Source of the DNA: a virus
Taxonomy: Duplodnaviria > Heunggongvirae > Uroviricota > Caudoviricetes
DNA length: 37,852 nt
IMG/VR virus record: IMGVR_UViG_2531839583_000010
Direction: 5' to 3' (one strand)
Positions 1,132-14,315 of this stretch are shown here, one piece after another. Position 1 is the stretch's first letter. Each line of letters starts with the position of its first letter. A program made the translations under genes and the position numbers. Under the pieces are notes generated by a model, which had not been told where the DNA came from, searched no databases, and saw only the letters and a program-made list of their open reading frames with translations.

Positions 1132-1503
1132 TCATAAGTACCGATATGATTGCGGGGCCGTTATGTTATCACCTAATGAACTTAGATGAAGCGGTTGATC
1201 ATAGATTTTTAAATTGCCAATTTCTATAGCAAAGGCTTTTTCTTTGCTATGAAAATATGAGTCAAAAAATTGTTTGCTGATACCTGCGTATTGGCTTGTT
1301 TTTTCCCATACAATACTTGGCTTGTCTTCTATAACGTCTGCAATGTCAAATTCAGCAACAACTTTACCGACAGGCATTGTTGAATAAATAACCACAGATT
1401 TTACATCCGGGTTTTTGAAAAGACCTTTCCTGAATTCAAACTTCTTTGTCCCATTAAGGATCTTTTCAACAAATTCAGGTTTTATTGACAATAATACTTT
1501 CAT
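1132..1503 (-). CDS. ASCH-domain (PUA-like fold) protein, cargo gene 3 of the cI-int cassette
   Basis: 123 aa; N-terminus LLSIKPEFVEKILNGTKKFEFRK resembles the ASCH signature (LSIkPeya..Il.GkKt.E.R); overlaps the upstream gene by 29 nt. Homology is recalled, not searched. Confidence 0.6.
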   Translation of the reverse strand: MKVLLSIKPEFVEKILNGTKKFEFRKGLFKNPDVKSVVIYSTMPVGKVVAEFDIADVIEDKPSIVWEKTSQYAGISKQFFDSYFHSKEKAFAIEIGNLKIYDQPLHLSSLGDNITAPQSYRYL

Positions 1504-2554
1504 CTACAGCACCAAGTTTAATTATATCGTCAAATTGCTTATCGGTTAATTTAACAACACCCCAACGGTTTTTAGGATTCAAACCAATTTCTTTAATTAG
1601 TTTAGCACGATTTATTCTTTTAGGTAAAGCTAGATTATATGTAAAACTAATAATGTAAGGGTATCTTCTTGTTTGATAAAATTTTTTCAATTCATTTTCA
1701 GAAAATACACTGTATCGTGCACAATATTGTATGAATTCATTTTCATTATGAAAAGAATCAATATATCTAATATCTTCAACTACACATAATGACGTTGCGA
1801 CAGAACGATAGTATGCTCTGTTCTCTTCGTCACTTGTTCTGTAAATAACTAAGATGTCATGTTTTTTTATTTTTTTTACATCATACATTCTACATATATA
1901 TATTTTTCTAATGCTATTAGCATGAGATACATCCGTGATTATATCTGGAGATTCAGTGACGAGTTTTGAATCAGGAAAAAGTTTTGTATGAAATTCAGGG
2001 TGTATTGACAATAGGTATTTATTCTCATTATTTTTATTATTTATATATGGGTAATCAGAAAGTATATCACCCGTGAGGTGATTTCTATTCATCTCTCTTA
2101 CTAAAACATTTTCTATACCATTTGCGGTTTTTTTTGTGCCATGAAGAATGAATCCATAAAGTTTGAATAGTTTTATTAGATATTCATGTTTTTCAAATAC
2201 AGTAACGTAAATATCATTAACTCTTTCTTTTAAAGCATGATCAAATATTTTTTTTAAAAAACGTTGCCCTCGTAATGTTTTTTTTGTATTGAACTTAAAG
2301 GTTCCAATTTTCAAATGTTTATGATTGATAATTGATGGGGTGACATCAGTTATTTTACCGAATTCAATTTTTAAATACATAAAACCATCAATGGTATTAT
2401 CGTCATTATAAAGCACATATGCTTTTTCTTCTGGATTAAGACTTTTTCTGTTGAACCATTCAATAAAACCGTGTTCATAGTCATTCTTTAACGAATCAAA
2501 AAATGTATCGTCAAAATTTACTTGACTGAATGGAATAAGTTTTAAATTTTCCAT
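1475..2554 (-). CDS. Hypothetical two-domain protein; C-terminal half has an ASCH-like motif, N-terminal half has weak GNAT-like features
   Basis: 359-aa ORF in an AT-rich island; C-terminal segment LLSIHPEFHTKLF...ILVIYRTSDEE echoes the neighbouring ASCH start; the N-terminal RGQRFLKKIFDHAL stretch only loosely resembles GNAT motif A. Confidence 0.5.
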   Translation of the reverse strand: MENLKLIPFSQVNFDDTFFDSLKNDYEHGFIEWFNRKSLNPEEKAYVLYNDDNTIDGFMYLKIEFGKITDVTPSIINHKHLKIGTFKFNTKKTLRGQRFLKKIFDHALKERVNDIYVTVFEKHEYLIKLFKLYGFILHGTKKTANGIENVLVREMNRNHLTGDILSDYPYINNKNNENKYLLSIHPEFHTKLFPDSKLVTESPDIITDVSHANSIRKIYICRMYDVKKIKKHDILVIYRTSDEENRAYYRSVATSLCVVEDIRYIDSFHNENEFIQYCARYSVFSENELKKFYQTRRYPYIISFTYNLALPKRINRAKLIKEIGLNPKNRWGVVKLTDKQFDDIIKLGAVDESIIVNKT

Positions 2555-2581
2555 GTTGCCCCCTGTTTAATTATTGTGAGA

Positions 2582-3646
2582 TTATTTTCTATAGGTCCAA
2601 AGGTGAATAATTATATATATTACAATAGCTAAAATTGCCCCACCGATATAATATGTGCTTGTCGGTATAAATTTAAGAATAAAAGCAAAGGCAGCACCAT
2701 ATATCAAGTACGCAAAAATTTTACTGAATTTGGTTTTCGTGTTTTTAAACTTCACAACAACAGAGAAGTCATTTAGTGTTGTTTCATTATCATTAACAAT
2801 CTTCCAATGGTAAATCATAGGGTCGTGATCACCAAATGAAATACCTTTTTCGAAATATTTTGTCCATGTTTCAGACTCTAATATTCTACATCCTTTATAA
2901 CTTGAGCCAGATGCTGAACATTCATCAACAATATCTCTTATTATAAACAAATGTATTTTTAAAGGTGTGCAAGCGGCGCTCGCCAGAGTTGTAGCAATTT
3001 CTGAAGGTAGGTTTCTTTGTTCATTGATCCTAAAATCAATAATATCAGAACGCTCAATATTACTTTTGAGAAAGAGATCTTTTGGATAAAATGTTTTTAC
3101 TAAAACACCTATATCTTCATTGTTGAGTTTAACTCGAAATCTTAAATAATGTGGAGCATCCTCTGACGATAGGCAATCTTTTAGCTTGAAAACAATGAAG
3201 GTGCCATTATGTATTTTAGTTACCTTAACCCTACGATCAAGTTCGCCACCACTAAAGGTCAGATTTGTATTAACAACTAAATCACCTTTATTCGCAAGTT
3301 CTAATTTTGAATGTCTGACGTCTACTGTTTTTGTATTAATAAGATATTCATTAAAAACAGCTGTTACGAGATCTCGGCTTGACTCGAGATTTTTACTAAG
3401 ATCAGAAAAAAAACAATTTTCCTTCTCAAATGGTAAAAATATGCATATTGCACCATGATTTGCAATGGTGTCGTCATCAGGTTTTTTAAACGTAATACCA
3501 AAATCTAAATAACAAAATTTATGAGCACTTATATTCCAAAAATTTATGTGTAACTCATTAATAAAATTATTGCGTTCAGGGTTATAGGTCGAACTCGAAT
3601 TGCTCCTATAATCCCTACATCCCCAGATAGCAAAACTTTTTGACAT
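2582..3646 (-). CDS. Hypothetical protein with a large soluble N-domain and two C-terminal transmembrane helices
   Basis: 354-aa ORF; C-terminus IFAYLIYGAAFAFILKFI...YYIGGAILAIVIYIIIHLW has two hydrophobic helices; no recognised catalytic motif. Confidence 0.5.
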   Translation of the reverse strand: MSKSFAIWGCRDYRSNSSSTYNPERNNFINELHINFWNISAHKFCYLDFGITFKKPDDDTIANHGAICIFLPFEKENCFFSDLSKNLESSRDLVTAVFNEYLINTKTVDVRHSKLELANKGDLVVNTNLTFSGGELDRRVKVTKIHNGTFIVFKLKDCLSSEDAPHYLRFRVKLNNEDIGVLVKTFYPKDLFLKSNIERSDIIDFRINEQRNLPSEIATTLASAACTPLKIHLFIIRDIVDECSASGSSYKGCRILESETWTKYFEKGISFGDHDPMIYHWKIVNDNETTLNDFSVVVKFKNTKTKFSKIFAYLIYGAAFAFILKFIPTSTYYIGGAILAIVIYIIIHLWTYRK

Positions 3647-3674: not shown

Positions 3675-4328
3675 TTATACATCTGATAATACTTTTCGAT
3701 AGCATCTTGCGATGGGTTTTATATCGTCAAGCATACATTCAAAAAATGTTTGACCACTGCTAACTTTTACTCTCCCAACTGGAATTCTAACCAGATCACG
3801 AGAACTTATTTTTCCTTCTATTTCAACAATCCATTTCCCATCAATAATTTCATCAAATTTCATGTCTACCAGATAATTATCTGATAACTCAGAAAATATT
3901 GCGGGGGTAATCATATCCACCGGGAGCAAATCTTTATCAAAAATGTAAGAGGAATCACCTTGTAGCTTGCCATCTACTATTTTGTAATGTGGCAATTTTA
4001 TACCTTCTTTCGTTGCTTTAAGACGAGGAGAACCAACACCAGACACTAACCATTCGAGAGACACTCCCGTTTCTAGAGCGCACTGAATTACCCAATCAGC
4101 TGGAAAAATATCACGCATATAGCGCGTTGCCATGGTGCTCTTAGAAACACCTAAATGATCACAGAGAGCCTGACGGGTACCGAACCCATATGCTTCAACT
4201 AAACGTTCTATAGCTTTCTTACCGCCGCTATTGAAATCCACAAGTCCTCCAAAGAAATCCAAAACTCGTTGACAGATTCCAAAAGCGATCTTAAAGTTGA
4301 ACCAGAAGTGTTCTTTTGGAGCCTTCAC
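3675..4328 (-). CDS. cI: CI-type immunity repressor (phage 186 family, HTH)
   Basis: HTH region ERLVEAYGFGTRQALCDHLGVSKSTMATRY...CALETGVSLEWLVSGVG resembles the 186 CI N-domain; divergent from apl/cII as in 186. The true start may be internal (ORF is about 25 aa longer than expected). Confidence 0.7.
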   Translation of the reverse strand: MKAPKEHFWFNFKIAFGICQRVLDFFGGLVDFNSGGKKAIERLVEAYGFGTRQALCDHLGVSKSTMATRYMRDIFPADWVIQCALETGVSLEWLVSGVGSPRLKATKEGIKLPHYKIVDGKLQGDSSYIFDKDLLPVDMITPAIFSELSDNYLVDMKFDEIIDGKWIVEIEGKISSRDLVRIPVGRVKVSSGQTFFECMLDDIKPIARCYRKVLSDV

Positions 4329-7065: not shown

Positions 7066-9480
7066 ATGAGTCATGACGATATGAGCAACTCTAGCGGCTT
7101 TAACGAGGCCGCTACAGCATTTTCATGGAACGGCCCGAAAAAGGCCATTAACCCTTATCTGGACCCGGCGGAAGTTGCGCCGGAGTCTGCACTTTTAAAC
7201 CTGATCACTCTGTACGCTGCCGATAATGAGCAGGAACAGCTGCGCCGCGATGCACTGAGTGAGCAGGTCTGGGAGCGTTATTTCTTTAATGAATCTCGTG
7301 ATCCTGTCCAGCGCGAAATGGAGCAGGATAAGCTCATTAGCCGGGCAAAGCTGGCGCATGAACAGCAGCGTTTTAACCCGGACATGGTCATTCTGGCGGA
7401 CGTCAGCGCCCAGCCCACCCATATTAGCAAGCCGCTGATGCAACGTATCGAATACTTCAGCAGCCTGGGCAGGCCAAAGGCTTATTCCCGCTATTTGCGT
7501 GAGACGATTAAGCCATGTCTGGAGCGACTGGATTGTGTACGTGACAGTCAGCTGTCTGCTTCTTTCCGTTTTATGGCAAGCCATCAAGGGCTGGAGGGCC
7601 TGCTGATCCTGCCTGAAATGAGTCAGGACCAGGTGAAACGCCTGTCCACCCTGGTAGCTGCGCATATGAGCATGTGCCTTGATGCAGCTTGTGGCGATTT
7701 GTATGCCACCGATGACGTTAAGCCAGAAGAAATCCGCAAGACATGGGAAAAGGTGGCGGCGGAAACCCTGCGTCTGGATGTCATCCCACCTGCGTTTGAG
7801 CAACTCCGTCGGAAAAGAAACCGCCGTAAACCCGTACCCTATGAACTCATTCCGGGTTCGCTGGCGCGTATGTTGTGCGCCGACTGGTGGTATCGGAAAT
7901 TATGGAAGATGCGTTGCGAATGGCGGGAAGAGCAGTTGCGTGCTGTCTGCCTGGTCAGCAAAAAAGCATCTCCCTATGTCAGCTATGAAGCCGTGATGCA
8001 TAAACGTGAGCAGCGCCGTAAGTCGCTGGAGTTTTTCCGTTCTCATGAACTGGTGAACGAAGACGGCGACACGCTGGACATGGAGGATGTGGTAAACGCC
8101 AGCAGCAGCAACCCTGCGCATCGCCGCAATGAGATGATGGCCTGTGTTAAAGGTCTGGAGCTTATCGCGGAAATGCGCGGTGACTGCGCCGTTTTCTATA
8201 CTATCACCTGTCCGTCACGTTTCCATTCCACGCTCAACAACGGCAGACCCAACCCGACCTGGACAAATGCGACGGTAAGACAAAGCAGCGATTATCTGGT
8301 CGGCATGTTTGCTGCATTTCGTAAGGCAATGCACAAAACCGGGTTGCGCTGGTATGGCGTGCGGGTGGCTGAGCCGCACCATGACGGTACTGTGCACTGG
8401 CATCTCATGTGCTTCATGCGTAAAAAAGACCGCCGCGCCATCACTGCATTACTGCGTAAGTTTGCCATCCGTGTAGACCGCGAGGAGCTGGGCAACAACA
8501 CGGGGCCACGCTTTAAGTCTGAGCTGATTAACCCGCGCAAAGGAACACCGACAAGCTACATCGCGAAATACATCAGTAAGAACATTGACGGGCGTGGTCT
8601 GGCTGGCGAGATCAGCAAGGAAACGGGTAAATCCCTGCGTGATAACGCCGAATACGTTAATGCCTGGGCGTCTCTGCATCGTGTTCAGCAGTTCCGCTTC
8701 TTTGGTATTCCGGGACGTCAGGCTTACCGTGAACTTCGCTTGCTGGCTGGTCAGGCGGCAAGGCAACAGGGGGACAAAAAAGCAGGTGCGCTGATACTGG
8801 ATGACCCGCGCCTTGATGCCATCCTGGCTGCTGCTGATGCTGGTTGTTTTGCCACCTACATCATGAAGCAGGGCGGCGTACTGGTTCCCCGTAAATATCA
8901 CCTTATCAGAACCGCTTATGAAATCAACGAAGAGCCGACCGCCTATGGCGATCACGGCATTCGTATTTATGGCATCTGGTCACCCATTGCAGAGGGCAAG
9001 ATCTGCACTCATGCAGTGAAGTGGAAAATGGTTCGTAAGGCCGTTGACGTTCAGGAGGCGGTAGCCGACCAGGGCGCTTGCGCCCCTTGGACTCGTGGCA
9101 ATAACTGTCCCCTTGCTGAAAATTTGTACCAACAAGGGAAAGACAAATCAGCTGATGGGGATACCAGAACGGATATCACCCGTATGGATGACAAGGAGTT
9201 GCACGATTACCTGCACAGTATGAACAAAAAAGAACGCCGGGAACTGGCTGCAAGGTTACGCCTGGTGAAACCGAAACGGCGTAGAGACTACAAACAGCGA
9301 ATTACAGACCATCAACGACAGCAGCTCGTCTATGAACTGAAGTCCAGAGGATTTGATGGCAGCGAGAAAGAGGTCGATTTACTCCTTCGCGGCGGCAGTA
9401 TTCCGTCAGGAGCAGGCCTGCGTATCTTCTATCGGAACCAGCGTTTGCAGGAAGATGATAAGTGGCGGGATCTGTATTAA
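7066..9480 (+). CDS. A: Replication initiation protein A (rolling-circle nickase, P2 gpA-like)
   Basis: 804-aa ORF downstream of the early genes, in the position and size of P2 gene A. Confidence 0.8.
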
Positions 9481-9573
9481 TTACGCGGGTTAACAATTCG
9501 TGCTCTTAATAATACCAGGCATATCAGGCTGATGAACGTAAAAAAAACGTTTTACATCAGTAAGATTATTATA

Positions 9574-9593
9574 TACTGTAAATATAAACAGTG
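9574..9593. promoter_or_regulatory. LexA (SOS) box CTGT-N8-ACAG
   Basis: tactgtaaatataaacagtg: CTGT at 9576-9579, 8-nt AT spacer, ACAG at 9588-9591; about 45 nt upstream of ORF 9635. Confidence 0.6.
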
Positions 9594-9634
9594 GTTATGT
9601 GTACAGTATTGCTTGTGGTGTCATAGGAGGAAAA

Positions 9635-9823
9635 ATGCAGGACTATTTTTTGGAGTCTTTGAAGCTCCAGCGCATTGATTTTTTTCTTAAGCTTGTAGCG
9701 GCTAGTGAGTGTAGTGATGAAGAGAAGGGGCTGGCTCTGCAGTGGGTTTCTGAATTGACTGATGAACTCATGGCAAAAATCAGAAGCCACGAATACAACC
9801 GCTCAATGGATGTCATCAGCTGA
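9635..9823 (+). CDS. Hypothetical protein, first ORF of the SOS-controlled tum-like module
   Basis: 62-aa ORF with GGAGG Shine-Dalgarno; directly downstream of the LexA box. Confidence 0.45.
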   Translation: MQDYFLESLKLQRIDFFLKLVAASECSDEEKGLALQWVSELTDELMAKIRSHEYNRSMDVIS

Positions 9824-9833
9824 GGTGACTTTT

Positions 9834-10067
9834 ATGCGCATTGAAATAATGATCGATAAAGAGCAGAAAATTAGCCAGTCTACCCTGGACGCCCTTGAAT
9901 CCGAGCTTTACCGCAATCTGCGCCCCCTGTATCCCAAAACGGTAATTCGTATCCGCAAAGGTAGCTCTAACGGTGTGGAACTGACCGGACTGCAACTGGA
10001 CGAAGAAAGAAAACAAGTGATGAAAATTATGCAGAAGGTGTGGGAAGACGACAGCTGGCTGCATTAA
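9834..10067 (+). CDS. DinI-like protein (Tum C-terminal-domain-like antirepressor module)
   Basis: MRIEIMIDKEQ...LDALESELYRNL...KIMQKVWEDDSW parallels E. coli DinI (MRIEVTIAK...EILQETWESADDW); GAGGTG Shine-Dalgarno upstream. Confidence 0.7.
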   Translation: MRIEIMIDKEQKISQSTLDALESELYRNLRPLYPKTVIRIRKGSSNGVELTGLQLDEERKQVMKIMQKVWEDDSWLH

Positions 10068-10572
10068 GAAACGTTGCTGGCGTCTGAACTTGCTTCTGGC
10101 GTCAGCAAGGTTGAATAACGAGCTGTGCGAGGCGTTAGCCATCTGATCAAAAGACATCAAATATCATATTGTATATCGTGGTCAAACGCTGGAAACAATC
10201 ATTCCCGGTCAGAGGGGCTTCTTTCAATGTCTAAAAGAGTGAGATAGAGGATACAGGATGGGAAGAGCTTATGATGATTGTTCTTGGATTGACTTGGAAT
10301 ATTTGATGTCCATTATCTAATGGACTTGGTCTTGATAGTTATCACGAAAGAGGAAGCCAACGTCATGTATTTGAAGAGTATCTCTTACCTTTTGATTAAT
10401 TATTGTCCAAGTTTTTCAAAAGCTTCTTATCTGGCGGTCGATACATGATTTACTGTTGGATATGGTATTTAAAATTAATCTTTACACTGTGGTATATGCA
10501 GAATAGGATATTATCAATACAATCAAACTGTTTTCATACGGTTGTTAATATTGCAATGTTATAGGTAATGTC

Positions 10573-11691
10573 ATGTATCTTTTCAAGTATTACCGTCCGG
10601 ACTTCTTCTTCGAGAAAGCTATTCGTTATAATGAATTATATTTTTCCGCTCCTGCGCAATTGAATGATCCTAATGATCTCAATATAGATTATCGTTTTGA
10701 TAATAAATTGAAATTATGAGATATTTTATTGCGTTCTCCTTGCGATAAATCCTATAAAAATTTGAGTCACATATTAGATTTGAGTAATTTGAAGATACAT
10801 AAGGGATTGAATCGTATTTTTAGAGGAAAAAAAATAAAAAGTAGCATTGAGTCATTAGATAGCCTGTTTGACTCACACGTTGATGAGATACGTAAGATCA
10901 TAAATGATGGTTTACTACCTATCAATGTGATTAATTCCGCTATTTATGGGAATATTCCTGAACCACGCCAATTTTTGGTCTCACTTTGCGAGAACAGTAT
11001 CAAAGAAAGGTTGTATAGGAAAATAGTTCCTGCAGTATTCAGTGTGTCATTTTCAGCTAATGCGTTAGATCGTATGATGTGGGCGCATTATGCTGCAGGC
11101 TTTAGTGGTTGTGTTGTGATTTATGAAACGCAGGATTTTAATATTAATGGCGTACCACATCCTGGAATGAAGTTAAGAGAAAATTTATTTTCATCAGATA
11201 AAATTAATTTTCCAGTTAAGCCAATAAAATATAGTAATCAAGCTAAAGAGGTTTCACTTCTAGACCCAAGCGCAAATGTTGCAGAGTTATTTTTAACTAA
11301 AAATAGATTTTGGAGATATGAAGCTGAATATCGAATGTTTATTCCAGAGGCAAATGCAGGAATAGGGAGTGAGCGGCATGTTCAAAGACACGTAAATCGA
11401 AATATTGGACATGTTTTTCATCATGATGCTAATGTTGTTAAAGGGATCATTTTTGGTCCTAGAATGTGTGAAATGAAAAAAGAAAGCATATGGAATTGTA
11501 TCAAGTCAAATATGGAGAATTCAAATTCAACAATATGTTATTTTTTTGACTCTGAGTTATCAGCATCAGGAAAGATTACTATTTCAAAAGGGCAACGAGC
11601 GGAAAAAATGAAAAATTTCCCTTTGTTCAGGAACAAGTTAAGTCAGACGGAAATGGCTAAAGTTTTGAAGGAAATTGGCATTACGAACTAA
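10573..11691 (+). pseudogene. DUF2971-like gene interrupted by an in-frame TGA (10717-10719)
   Basis: ATG 10573 encodes YLFKYYRPDFFFEKAIRYNELYFSAPAQLNDPND (DUF2971 N-motif as recalled); a TGA follows; the same frame continues to 11691 and contains MWAHYAAGFSGCVVIYE and RFWRYEAEYR (DUF2971 core motifs). The track ORF 10729-11691 starts at a TTG. Confidence 0.55.
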
Positions 11692-11756
11692 CCTAACAAC
11701 AGTGCATGCCTATGCTGCCTGAATTTGCATGACCGTTTGAGGATCGTTTTTGCTAA

Positions 11757-11781
11757 GGCCCGCCAGAACTGGCGGGCTTTT
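11757..11781 (+). terminator. Rho-independent terminator candidate
   Basis: ggcccgccag-aa-ctggcgggc followed by tttt; GC stem plus T-run downstream of the DUF2971-like gene. Confidence 0.6.
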
Positions 11782-11826
11782 GCGTGGATCAGGCACCTGC
11801 ATGAAAACCACTACACAAAGCGGGCA

Positions 11827-11845
11827 GGCGTGGCGGGGATACGAG
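11827..11845. other. Putative cos (cohesive end) site, ggcgtggcggggatacgag
   Basis: The first 13 nt match the recalled P2/186 cohesive end (GGCG[A/T]GGCGGGGA...); it sits in a short GC-rich island between two AT-rich cargo genes. Assigned from memory of the P2/186 cos sequences. Confidence 0.4.
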
Positions 11846-11978
11846 CGCGCGTTATGACAAATAGATGATTAGCCTGATTTATTTACAGCTGTATAAATGA
11901 TCACCTTGTAATTAGGTAAGTAATGTCTTCTATTATCATTGATTTGATAGGATTAATCTGTTTTTTGAGGATTAGAGG

Positions 11979-14315
11979 ATGATTGAAGAGGTAGTTATTG
12001 ACAAGGTAGGCTCATATAATGGCCCTACGCAGCTTTTACATGGACTTTCTAAATTTAACTATTTATATGGAGCTAATGGTGCAGGTAAAACAACTATAAG
12101 TAAAATTATTAATGACCCTGAACAATATCCAACATGTCCGATTAAATGGAAAAATAATATATCTTTAATAAGCTACGTATATAATAAAGATTTTGTTGAA
12201 AGAAATTTTAGTCAAGATAAAATTAAAGGTGTATTTACCCTTGGTAGCGATCTTAAGGAGGATGAAGAGAAACTAATATCTCTTAAAGAAGAAAAAAATA
12301 AGCTAATGGAATCTATTATAGCAAAGGAAAAGTTAATAGATGGTGGTGATAATGAATTAGGCGTTATTAAAAAAATCGAAGACCATGAAAAATCTTTTAA
12401 AGATTCATGTTGGAAGCAAAAAGTAAAACATGACAATGTGTTCTCAAAGGCTTTTGAGGGATTAAGGAATAGTAGTGAAAAATTTAAAGCCAGAGTGTTG
12501 GCTGAGTATGAAAATAATACATCAGAAGTTTGCTCAATAGCAGAGTTAATTGAGAAAGCAAAAATTGTTTTTTCTACTGAATTGACATCACATGTATCAA
12601 TTACAATTCCATCCTTCAATGGGATAGATGATATTTTGAGTAGGGAAGTTTGGAGTGAGCGTATCCTAGGGAAAAAAGACGTTAGTGTTTCAGACTTAAT
12701 TACAATGCTCAATAACAGTGATTGGGTTAAGGAGGGTTTAACATATTTCAGTAAATCTAATCCCAAGTGCCCATTCTGCCAGCAGGATGTAAATGATAAT
12801 ATATTTGATAATCTTTCATCATATTTTGATAAAACATATGAGTTAAAAAAAAGAGAAATCGATGCATTGGTTTTACAATATGAATATCAACTTAATAATA
12901 TCTTGAAGGCGATAGATGATATAAGGGCGATTAAATCTCCATTCATAAATTATGAAGTGTTTGAGGATAAGGCTAAGATAGTATTATCTGAATTAAACAA
13001 GAATTTTGAATTGGCAAAAAATAAACGCAATTTTTTAAGTGAATCAGTTCATTTTAGTGACTTAAGTGAAGTTGTTGATGATTTTATTTCTTTTTTGAAT
13101 GATTCAAATCTATTGATAGATAATAATAACAAAATACATAGTAATAGAAAGGTAGAGGCTAGTAATCTTTCTAAGCAGATATGGGCATATATCGTAAAGG
13201 TGGAGTTAAAGTCTGAAATAACTTCTTACCGTAGCAAATCTGATAAGTTTAATAGGACGTTACAAGGACTTAAATCTGGGATAGAAGAAGACAAAAAGAA
13301 GTTAATGTTAAATACTTCGGCTATTGAGGCAATTGAGTCTAATAAAACCAGTACTCTTCCAACTATTACAAAAATTAACAAGATTCTGGACTCTTATGGC
13401 TTCAAAAATTTTTACTTAAAACCCTCCGAAGATAAAAAGCATTATATGATAGTGAGAGATAGTGGAGATAATGCTCGTACAACCCTTAGTGAGGGAGAAA
13501 AGACATTTATCACTTTTTTGTACTTTTATAGCCTTGTTAGAGGGAGTGATAATGCATCAGGTGTTTTAGATGATCGTGTTGTAGTATTTGATGATCCAAT
13601 TTCAAGTTTAGATAGTGATATTCTGTTTATTGTAAGTTCGTTGATTAAAGATTTAATGGAGGATGTTCGTAAGGATGAAGGAAATATTAAGCAAATTATA
13701 TTCCTTACTCATAATATTTATTTTCATAAAGAGTTGACTTTTAATACCAAAAGATCCGGTAATCAAGCAATGAAAGAGGAGACTTTTTGGATTGTAAGGA
13801 AAAAAGGGAAGGTTTCATATCTTGAAAAGTGCGAATCAAACCCAATAAAAACGTCTTATGATTTGCTCTGGTGCGAATTGAGAAGAACAGACATTAATAA
13901 TAATACTATACAAAATACAATGCGAAGGATTTTGGAGAATTACTTTAAGATATTAGGTGGGATGGATATTAGGAAGCTTGAGTGTCATTTTTATGGTGAT
14001 GAAAAAATCATATTTAAATCTTTAGTGTCATGGATTAATGATGGTTCCCATTTTGCAGGTGATGATCTTTATATGAATTTAGATACGGAGTCTGTGCAAA
14101 AATATTTAATTGTTTTTCAGAAGATATTTGAATGTAGTGAGCATACTGCCCATTACAAAATGATGATGGGTGAGTTTTATAAACCGTTAAATGAGTCACT
14201 TCATCTACAAGATGAGTTTGATATAGATGATAGTGCGAATGATGAGTATGCTTCGTCAAAAATTGAGATAAAAGATGGAATAAACACATCTCTACATAGC
14301 AACACATATTTGTAA
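11979..14315 (+). CDS. RloC-like ABC/AAA_13-type ATPase with coiled-coil CxxC hook and C-terminal HEPN-like (R-x4-H) domain; candidate anticodon-nuclease-type defense protein
   Basis: Walker A GANGAGKTT (aa 31-39, nt 12069-12095); CPFC (aa 264-267, nt 12768-12779) inside a K/E-rich predicted coiled coil; LSEGEK signature (aa 503-508); Walker B/D-loop VVVFDDPISSLD (aa 534-545); RKLECH (aa 665-670, nt 13971-13988). AT-rich. Confidence 0.6.
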   Translation: MIEEVVIDKVGSYNGPTQLLHGLSKFNYLYGANGAGKTTISKIINDPEQYPTCPIKWKNNISLISYVYNKDFVERNFSQDKIKGVFTLGSDLKEDEEKLISLKEEKNKLMESIIAKEKLIDGGDNELGVIKKIEDHEKSFKDSCWKQKVKHDNVFSKAFEGLRNSSEKFKARVLAEYENNTSEVCSIAELIEKAKIVFSTELTSHVSITIPSFNGIDDILSREVWSERILGKKDVSVSDLITMLNNSDWVKEGLTYFSKSNPKCPFCQQDVNDNIFDNLSSYFDKTYELKKREIDALVLQYEYQLNNILKAIDDIRAIKSPFINYEVFEDKAKIVLSELNKNFELAKNKRNFLSESVHFSDLSEVVDDFISFLNDSNLLIDNNNKIHSNRKVEASNLSKQIWAYIVKVELKSEITSYRSKSDKFNRTLQGLKSGIEEDKKKLMLNTSAIEAIESNKTSTLPTITKINKILDSYGFKNFYLKPSEDKKHYMIVRDSGDNARTTLSEGEKTFITFLYFYSLVRGSDNASGVLDDRVVVFDDPISSLDSDILFIVSSLIKDLMEDVRKDEGNIKQIIFLTHNIYFHKELTFNTKRSGNQAMKEETFWIVRKKGKVSYLEKCESNPIKTSYDLLWCELRRTDINNNTIQNTMRRILENYFKILGGMDIRKLECHFYGDEKIIFKSLVSWINDGSHFAGDDLYMNLDTESVQKYLIVFQKIFECSEHTAHYKMMMGEFYKPLNESLHLQDEFDIDDSANDEYASSKIEIKDGINTSLHSNTYL

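Follow-up and report, generated by a model that had tools for sequence, protein, structure and literature searches.

A predicted two-gene SOS induction operon of the Tum type in a Fels-2-like prophage of Escherichia coli

What is the function of two short genes that follow a LexA box in a P2/186-like prophage, and are they a natural pair or the remains of a single broken gene? We have analyzed such a locus in a stretch of DNA of 37,852 nucleotides (nt) from the IMG/VR virus record IMGVR_UViG_2531839583_000010, referred to here in its whole length as the window. The window is a segment of an Escherichia coli chromosome in which a Fels-2-type prophage of the P2/186-like group is integrated. The right flank contains the gene for a YbjL protein that is 100% identical to that of E. 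coli HS, in which the prophage DuoHS occupies the same site. A sequence-only reading of positions 9574–10067 had placed a LexA box 5′ of two open reading frames (ORFs) in different frames, ORF1 of 62 amino acids (aa) and ORF2 of 77 aa, and all its coordinates and lengths were found to be correct. We conclude, with a probability of about 0.9, that a Fels-2/186-type (Peduoviridae) prophage has its SOS induction operon here, the first of the two genes coding for a predicted antirepressor.

The operon belongs to the known Tum, or TumA-TumB, module of 186-like phages, which has already been described, and genetically tested in near-identical prophages. Possibly only its double operator, and the covariation of Tum with the N-terminal domain of the repressor CI, are unreported. 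The module sets the lytic switch after DNA damage, antibiotics included, in very common prophages of E. coli, Salmonella and Klebsiella. For the window itself the outcome is mainly one of annotation, with a prophage predicted to be SOS-inducible via an antirepressor and not by repressor cleavage.

Two genes corresponding to the halves of 186 Tum

In phage 186 the Tum protein is made from the LexA-regulated promoter p95, and sequesters or inhibits CI (PMC7708051). The sequence-only reading had described 186 tum as a LexA-repressed gene for an antirepressor of about 146 aa with a DinI-like C-terminal half. The 186 record, which gives tum 146 aa and places a LexA site in p95, and our alignment both bear this out. 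The pair in the window had been proposed to be equivalent to the two parts of this protein. It lies directly 3′ of replication gene A, an 804-aa ORF (7066–9480) that corresponds in size and position to the replication endonuclease gene (2415 nt) of DuoHS. The genome is P2/186-like and contains the gene for a 186-type CI.

The tum- or tumA-like ORF1 (9635–9823, plus strand) has a Shine-Dalgarno sequence AGGAGG (9625–9630, plus strand) 4 nt 5′ of its ATG at 9635. Compared with Pfam and the PDB, ORF1 matched nothing meaningful. A search of 1.8 billion representative proteins gave 67 relatives, nearly all stand-alone proteins of 50–100 aa, with neither a DinI fusion nor a 186-type Tum among them. 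PSP3 TumA and 186 Tum themselves gave no pairwise BLASTP alignment with each other; the proteins are too short and too diverged for this method, and a profile was therefore needed for the alignment to 186 Tum that had been proposed. A hidden Markov model (HMM) of the ORF1 family, built from 31 sequences of the 67 relatives, matched residues 6–48 of 186 Tum with 35.8 bits and E = 3.4e-7 (for a nominal database, Z = 1e6). The same model matched 120 of 120 members of the 186 Tum N-terminal family, and none of the 442 other ORFs of the window that served as decoys. Because of this profile match we regard ORF1 as homologous, though diverged, to the N-terminal part of 186 Tum, which is specific to the antirepressor. 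PSP3 TumA aligns in register with the profile on the motif C-x7-AL-x-[LW][IV][AS][ED][IL].

The 62-aa protein is labeled hypothetical in RefSeq, and most records have no Tum or TumA label. In some Klebsiella phage records and a UniRef entry, ORF1 homologues are called ‘levan regulatory (domain) protein’, a name that no search supports and that is probably a propagated misannotation.

ORF2 (9834–10067, plus strand), a tumB-like gene, lies in another frame than ORF1. Its product is a member of the DinI family, matching Pfam DinI (PF06183) over profile positions 1–63 of 63 with E = 6.6e-23 and 81.3 bits against a cut-off of 24.2, and the structure of E. coli DinI (1GHH) over residues 1–75 with E = 2.7e-6. 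It is 41% identical to residues 71–145 of 186 Tum and 78% identical to PSP3 TumB. Its first residue aligns with residue 71 of 186 Tum, which is an annotated internal GTG start, and the 186 record states that the truncated Tum product made from this GTG ‘modulates SOS induction’. The two ORFs thus correspond to the two Tum halves, as had been supposed, ORF1 by its profile and ORF2 by direct alignment. The Shine-Dalgarno sequence of ORF2, GAGGTGA (9822–9828, plus strand), overlaps the TGA stop codon of ORF1 (9821–9823). We also considered a 101-aa ORF (9762–10067) that extends ORF2 upstream. This was rejected; it has no Shine-Dalgarno sequence, it overlaps the conserved tail of ORF1, and relatives annotate the 77-aa form.

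Genetic evidence on the role of these genes comes from related prophages. The DuoHS gene named tum is ECHS_RS04495 (PMC12055606, supplement), and ORF1 is 100% identical to it in both DNA and protein. In that paper, an in-frame deletion of tum abolished the lysis and virion formation induced by mitomycin C. Both were also abolished by lexA(Ind-), which gives a noncleavable LexA. The mutagen MX raised expression of the DinI-like STM2727 of Fels-2 5.5- to 14.8-fold, and operon analysis in the same study singled out STM2726-STM2727-STM2728 as one of several operons (PMC2225428). In the record of 186, the full-length tum product is stated to inhibit DNA binding by CI, the shorter products only modulating SOS induction.

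Could the DinI-like product nevertheless be the effector of induction, acting for example on RecA filaments, with ORF1 an accessory gene or leader peptide whose deletion affects the expression of ORF2? ORF2 is the only part of the operon with a recognized domain. The overlap of the ORF1 stop codon with the ORF2 Shine-Dalgarno sequence makes translational coupling conceivable, and the text of PMC12055606 that we consulted reports no complementation of the DuoHS tum deletion. However, that deletion is described there as joining the start and stop codons of tum, such that the junction was left intact. Furthermore, Cronobacter phage ESSI-2 and Escherichia phage ESSI2_ev015 have a single LexA box followed by an ORF1 homologue, with no DinI-like gene downstream of it. 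The homology of ORF1 to that part of Tum which is unique to the antirepressor, and the assignment of CI inhibition to the full-length product of 186, both argue in the same direction. In PSP3 too the antirepressor activity is assigned to the upstream gene, according to PMC3121763. A hairpin at the junction of the ORFs (9812–9829) was flagged as terminator-like by our scan, but its stability is not significant (z-score −1.16) and a role as attenuator was rejected. We therefore consider it improbable that ORF2 is the effector, and take ORF1 to be the predicted antirepressor.

As to why the coding capacity is divided, the sequence-only reading had allowed either a natural two-gene arrangement or a frameshifted tum. 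The first of these stands and the second is rejected. The ORFs are in different frames, 10 nt apart, and jointly cover both halves of 186 Tum, as would be expected if a 186-like gene of about 146 codons had been broken by a frameshift or nonsense mutation, leaving a prophage that is poorly SOS-inducible or not at all. Yet the same two-ORF layout is found in Fels-2, PSP3, DuoHS, SopEPhi and phages of Klebsiella and Yersinia. The PSP3 record describes tumA as ‘similar to 5′ end 186 tum; UV induction of prophage’ and tumB as ‘similar to dinI and 3′ end of 186 tum’, and the Fels-2 record refers to PSP3 TumB. PMC3121763, citing earlier work, states that in Fels-2 and PSP3 a stop codon divides tum in two. 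Of 5426 complete E. coli genomes, 1125, or about 1 in 5, contain the module. Both ORFs occur in 104 of the 120 IMG/VR contigs, among the matches listed, that carry the double LexA box described below. The junction in these listed copies always comprises a stop codon, a Shine-Dalgarno sequence and an ATG, with TGA, TAA or TAG serving as the stop and 10–11 nt between the ORFs.

Variable sites fall mostly at third codon positions in both ORFs (20, 9 and 51 at positions 1, 2 and 3 of ORF1; 28, 19 and 59 in ORF2), and the C-terminal tail of ORF1 shows conservation at the protein level. A strong Shine-Dalgarno sequence precedes each of the two ORFs. DuoHS, with an identical ORF1, is fully inducible, and stand-alone Tum proteins of 63 aa occur among the close relatives (~80% identical) of the N-terminal half of 186 Tum. 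A broken tum is thus essentially refuted already. From the stand-alone Tum proteins, the phages lacking the DinI-like gene and the natural split, we deduce that the antirepressor and DinI modules are separable and that 186 carries a fused variant. The TumA-like ORF of Cronobacter phage ESSI-2 is unannotated in its record.

The predicted LexA operator and tum promoter

LexA box 1 occupies 9574–9593 (20-mer TACTGTAAATATAAACAGTG, no strand assigned). Read directly from the sequence, TACTGTAAATATAAACAGT at 9574–9592 contains the exact core CTGT-N8-ACAG at 9576–9591. This core occurs once in the 37.8-kb window, where about 0.45 matches are expected by chance, and at least one match was present in 32 of 100 shuffles of the window. 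Taken alone, the single match in the window is weak evidence for a LexA box. For the gap of ~150 nt between the replication gene and ORF1, the chance expectation is roughly 0.002. We also examined the upstream regions of related genes in a set of 11 phages that span several Peduoviridae genera, comprising the window, Fels-2, DuoHS, SopEPhi, Klebsiella ST437-OXA245phi4.1, Yersinia MLG42, ESSI2_ev015, Cronobacter ESSI-2, Yersinia YenM 06.16-2, 186 and PSP3. In every one of the 11, the exact core lies 36–66 nt 5′ of the start of tum or tumA, within flanks that have diverged. Between the window, Fels-2 and DuoHS the sequence of box 1 is identical.

The left arm of box 1, TACTGT (9574–9579), doubles as the −10 hexamer of the putative tum promoter, the equivalent of p95 of 186. 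It is preceded, at a distance of 17 nt, by a −35-like hexamer TTTACA (9551–9556, plus strand). The same hexamers with the same 17-nt spacing are kept in SopEPhi, Klebsiella ST437-OXA245phi4.1 and Yersinia MLG42, with variable letters in the spacer, and it is this conserved spacing of the −35 hexamer and the LexA box from which we infer the promoter. The annotation of p95 in 186 has the LexA site and the −10 hexamer starting at one and the same base, and an operator overlapping the promoter is likewise found in the sequence of the window.

A second box, which the sequence-only reading had missed, overlaps the first. The putative LexA box 2 (9589–9608, no strand assigned) has the core GTGGTTATGTGTACAG at 9591–9606, and overlaps box 1 by the single base G9591. 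Its right half-site is perfect, and its left half-site is degenerate, with the non-consensus sequence GTGG. An overlap of one base pair is the norm for the double SOS operators of colicin genes. When a plasmid collection was searched with 9560–9625, 838 records matched 9568–9610 at 88–90% identity, most of them small mobilizable plasmids. In the two plasmids that we inspected, the match lies just 5′ of the colicin N and cloacin genes.

The operators of these two bacteriocin operons align base for base with that of the window. They have the same two-box design, CTGT-N8-MCAG and GTGG-N8-ACAG with one base in common, and a stretch of 22 nt that includes the non-consensus GTGG half-site, CAGTGGTTATGTGTACAGTATT, is identical in all three. 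They differ from the window in the upstream part of the promoter, where the phage has 8 extra bases holding its own −35-like hexamer. They also differ in what they control, a bacteriocin in the plasmids and an antirepressor gene in the prophage. The alignment suggests that the operator module is common to Col plasmids and phages, by descent or by exchange. Colicin double operators bind two LexA dimers, giving very tight repression (PMC2994835). If the resemblance is functional, the double operator would be predicted to give tighter repression than the single box of 186, with induction later and at a higher threshold of damage.

How widespread is this arrangement? The double box is found in the window, Fels-2, DuoHS, SopEPhi, Klebsiella phi4.1 and Yersinia MLG42, with fixed half-sites and variable spacers. 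Single LexA boxes are found in 186, PSP3, ESSI2_ev015, Cronobacter ESSI-2 and YenM 06.16-2. The double-box pattern is present in at least 120 IMG/VR contigs, again with half-sites fixed and spacers varying. Among the matches listed, 112 of 120 have a TumA-like ORF directly downstream, usually of 62 codons and beginning 27–28 nt past the double box. The double operator over tum in the Fels-2-like phages, which here comprise Felsduovirus, Gegevirus and Elveevirus records, may be unreported.

Some of these contigs depart from the usual arrangement. One (L100) has the double operator and the DinI-like ORF with no intact TumA-like ORF, and its tumA may be disrupted. In five others (L041, L049, L111, L115 and L120) the double-box pattern lies upstream of ORFs that are unrelated, or of none that is obvious.

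The idea that AT-rich intergenic DNA has given rise to the LexA-like palindrome by chance, with the operon controlled in some other way, would be allowed by the number of matches expected in the window and found in its shuffles, but is essentially refuted by the low expectation near the tum start, the exact box in all 11 relatives, the half-sites held fixed amid variable spacers, the match to operators described in the literature as binding two LexA dimers, the block of DuoHS induction by lexA(Ind-) and the mutagen induction of the Fels-2 counterpart genes.

Elsewhere in the window there is a further LexA-like box, TACTGTATGTATAACCAGT (1083–1101), with one mismatch to TACTGT-N8-ACAGT. It lies 30 nt 5′ of the integrase start (ATG 1053, minus strand), between a gene for an ASCH-domain protein and int. 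Sites with up to one mismatch are expected 0.38 times per window, and this one may be a chance occurrence or mark an SOS-controlled int promoter.

The CI repressor and the predicted switch

The presumed target of Tum is a 186-type CI immunity repressor encoded at 3675–4241 on the minus strand. Its likely start is the GTG at 4241, with GGAGG before it. The protein matches the Pfam families Phage_CI_repr (5.5e-30) and Phage_CI_C (2.8e-29); its identity to 186 CI is 31%.

We propose that the operon works in the following way. In the lysogen, LexA bound at the double operator would keep the tum promoter off, probably with both boxes occupied, box 1 lying over the −10 hexamer and box 2 over the likely region of the transcription start. 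On DNA damage, RecA-stimulated self-cleavage of LexA would allow synthesis of the two-gene transcript. The 62-aa product, the counterpart of the N-terminal half of 186 Tum and, in role, of PSP3 TumA, would bind the 186-type CI. CI would then no longer hold its operators, the lytic promoter would fire and the prophage would be induced. The 77-aa product would not be an antirepressor. Judging from its membership of the DinI family and from the annotation of the short Tum product of 186, it probably acts on RecA filaments, modulating the SOS response.

A number of observations weigh against this reading. In pairwise BLASTP, ORF1 aligned with neither 186 Tum nor PSP3 TumA, and PSP3 TumA scored only 12 bits against a combined profile, which makes it a weak link. 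The assignment of the PSP3 antirepressor activity to the upstream gene goes back to a personal communication, cited at second hand through PMC3121763. The tum promoter, with its weak hexamers, was missed by a generic promoter scan; we ascribe this to the −10 hexamer, which agrees with TATAAT at only 3 of 6 positions. Lastly, the CI of the window is only 50% identical overall to DuoHS CI (L008, 10701–11270), with 80% identity in the N-terminal domain and 32% in the C-terminal domain. Because of this divergence the response of the window CI to its Tum is extrapolated from DuoHS, and the SOS-inducibility of this particular prophage stands as a prediction. DuoHS and the window otherwise have the same Tum, the same integration site and most of the prophage in common, and the divergence of CI points to mosaic exchange of its C-terminal domain.

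Does the relationship between Tum and CI sequences indicate where the two proteins meet? In the 11 phages, pairwise identity of the Tum core correlates with that of the N-terminal, DNA-binding domain of CI (Spearman 0.80, Mantel p = 2e-4), a result from a small sample in which the N-terminal domain is the more conserved CI domain anyway. For the C-terminal, oligomerization domain the correlation is 0.15 (Mantel p = 0.2). Six phages have a Tum that is 85–100% identical to that of the window as a full protein, and 87–100% identical over the aligned core. Their CI proteins have the segment SKST[ML]A[TN]R[YM][ML]RD[SI]FPA[ED]WVIQCALETG in common, while their C-terminal domains are only 21–32% identical to that of the window.

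The covariation suggests that Tum recognizes the N-terminal domain of CI, and may be unreported. If true, Tum would dock on this domain, and co-resident Fels-2-like prophages having different CI C-terminal domains would cross-induce one another in trans. We put at about even the chance that both parts hold together, i.e., that the Fels-2-like group carries a colicin-type operator and that the N-terminal domain of CI is where its Tum docks. The double operator and the covariation offer modest leads on induction thresholds and on the cross-induction of co-resident prophages.

Flanking elements and comparison with known phages

Just past ORF2 there is a hairpin (10070–10112, plus strand; −23.5 kcal/mol, z-score −3.9) that is very stable, more so than any of 200 shuffles. 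It lacks a U tract and was not identified by the terminator scan. It is possible that it serves as an end-of-operon or partial terminator element, comparable to t95a of 186.

Identity to DuoHS stops exactly at the ORF2 stop codon, and the tum operon therefore forms the left edge of a variable hotspot. The variable cargo that follows (10729–14315) encodes a DUF2971/PDC-S31 protein (10729–11691) and a 778-aa AAA_13/PDC-S06 ATPase (11979–14315) with weaker matches to LmuB, PrrC and AriA. Cargo is also found between cI and int (1132–3646, minus strand), where the window has three genes and DuoHS a small hypothetical gene. These encode PDC-M11B with its ASCH domain (1132–1503), PDC-M11A (1475–2554) and a protein of 354 aa (2582–3646) that matched nothing in Pfam or PADLOC. 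This cargo looks like a candidate anti-phage defense island inside the lysogeny operon.

How does the module of the window compare with those of known phages? DuoHS of E. coli HS, with ECHS_RS04495 followed by the DinI-like ECHS_RS04500, has the identical 62-aa protein, the same box 1, the same gene order and the same ybjL site. It differs by 3 bases in the spacer of box 2, in its CI, and in the cargo both past the DinI-like gene and between cI and int. In Fels-2 the corresponding genes are STM2728 and a DinI-like gene that is called STM2727 in PMC2225428 and STM2726.1 in the phage record. The DNA of the module is 97.6% identical to the window, with the same double operator and two-gene layout. 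Its CI, in contrast, has a different and longer C-terminal part, and shares 26% identity with the window CI over the C-terminal domain, against 69% over the N-terminal one.

PSP3 resembles the window in that its gene A is followed by a LexA box, a gene of ~60 aa for ultraviolet (UV) induction and a DinI-like gene of 77 aa. It differs in its TumA, which is without BLASTP similarity to ORF1, in its single LexA box, and in a longer CI of 286 aa. In 186 both halves of Tum are homologous to the pair in the window, the LexA box lies over the −10 hexamer, and the module again follows gene A in a genome with a 186-type CI. However, 186 has one fused frame of 146 codons, from which internal starts yield the DinI-like product, and a single LexA box, and its Tum is only ~20% identical to ORF1 over the N-terminal core. 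A more distant parallel is provided by the dinI-gfoA and dinI-gftA operons of the Gifsy prophages, which also combine a small LexA-controlled antirepressor with a DinI homologue (PMC3121763). In those operons dinI comes first, and the repressors are gfoR and gtgR, which are grouped with DicA and RacR (PMC3121763).

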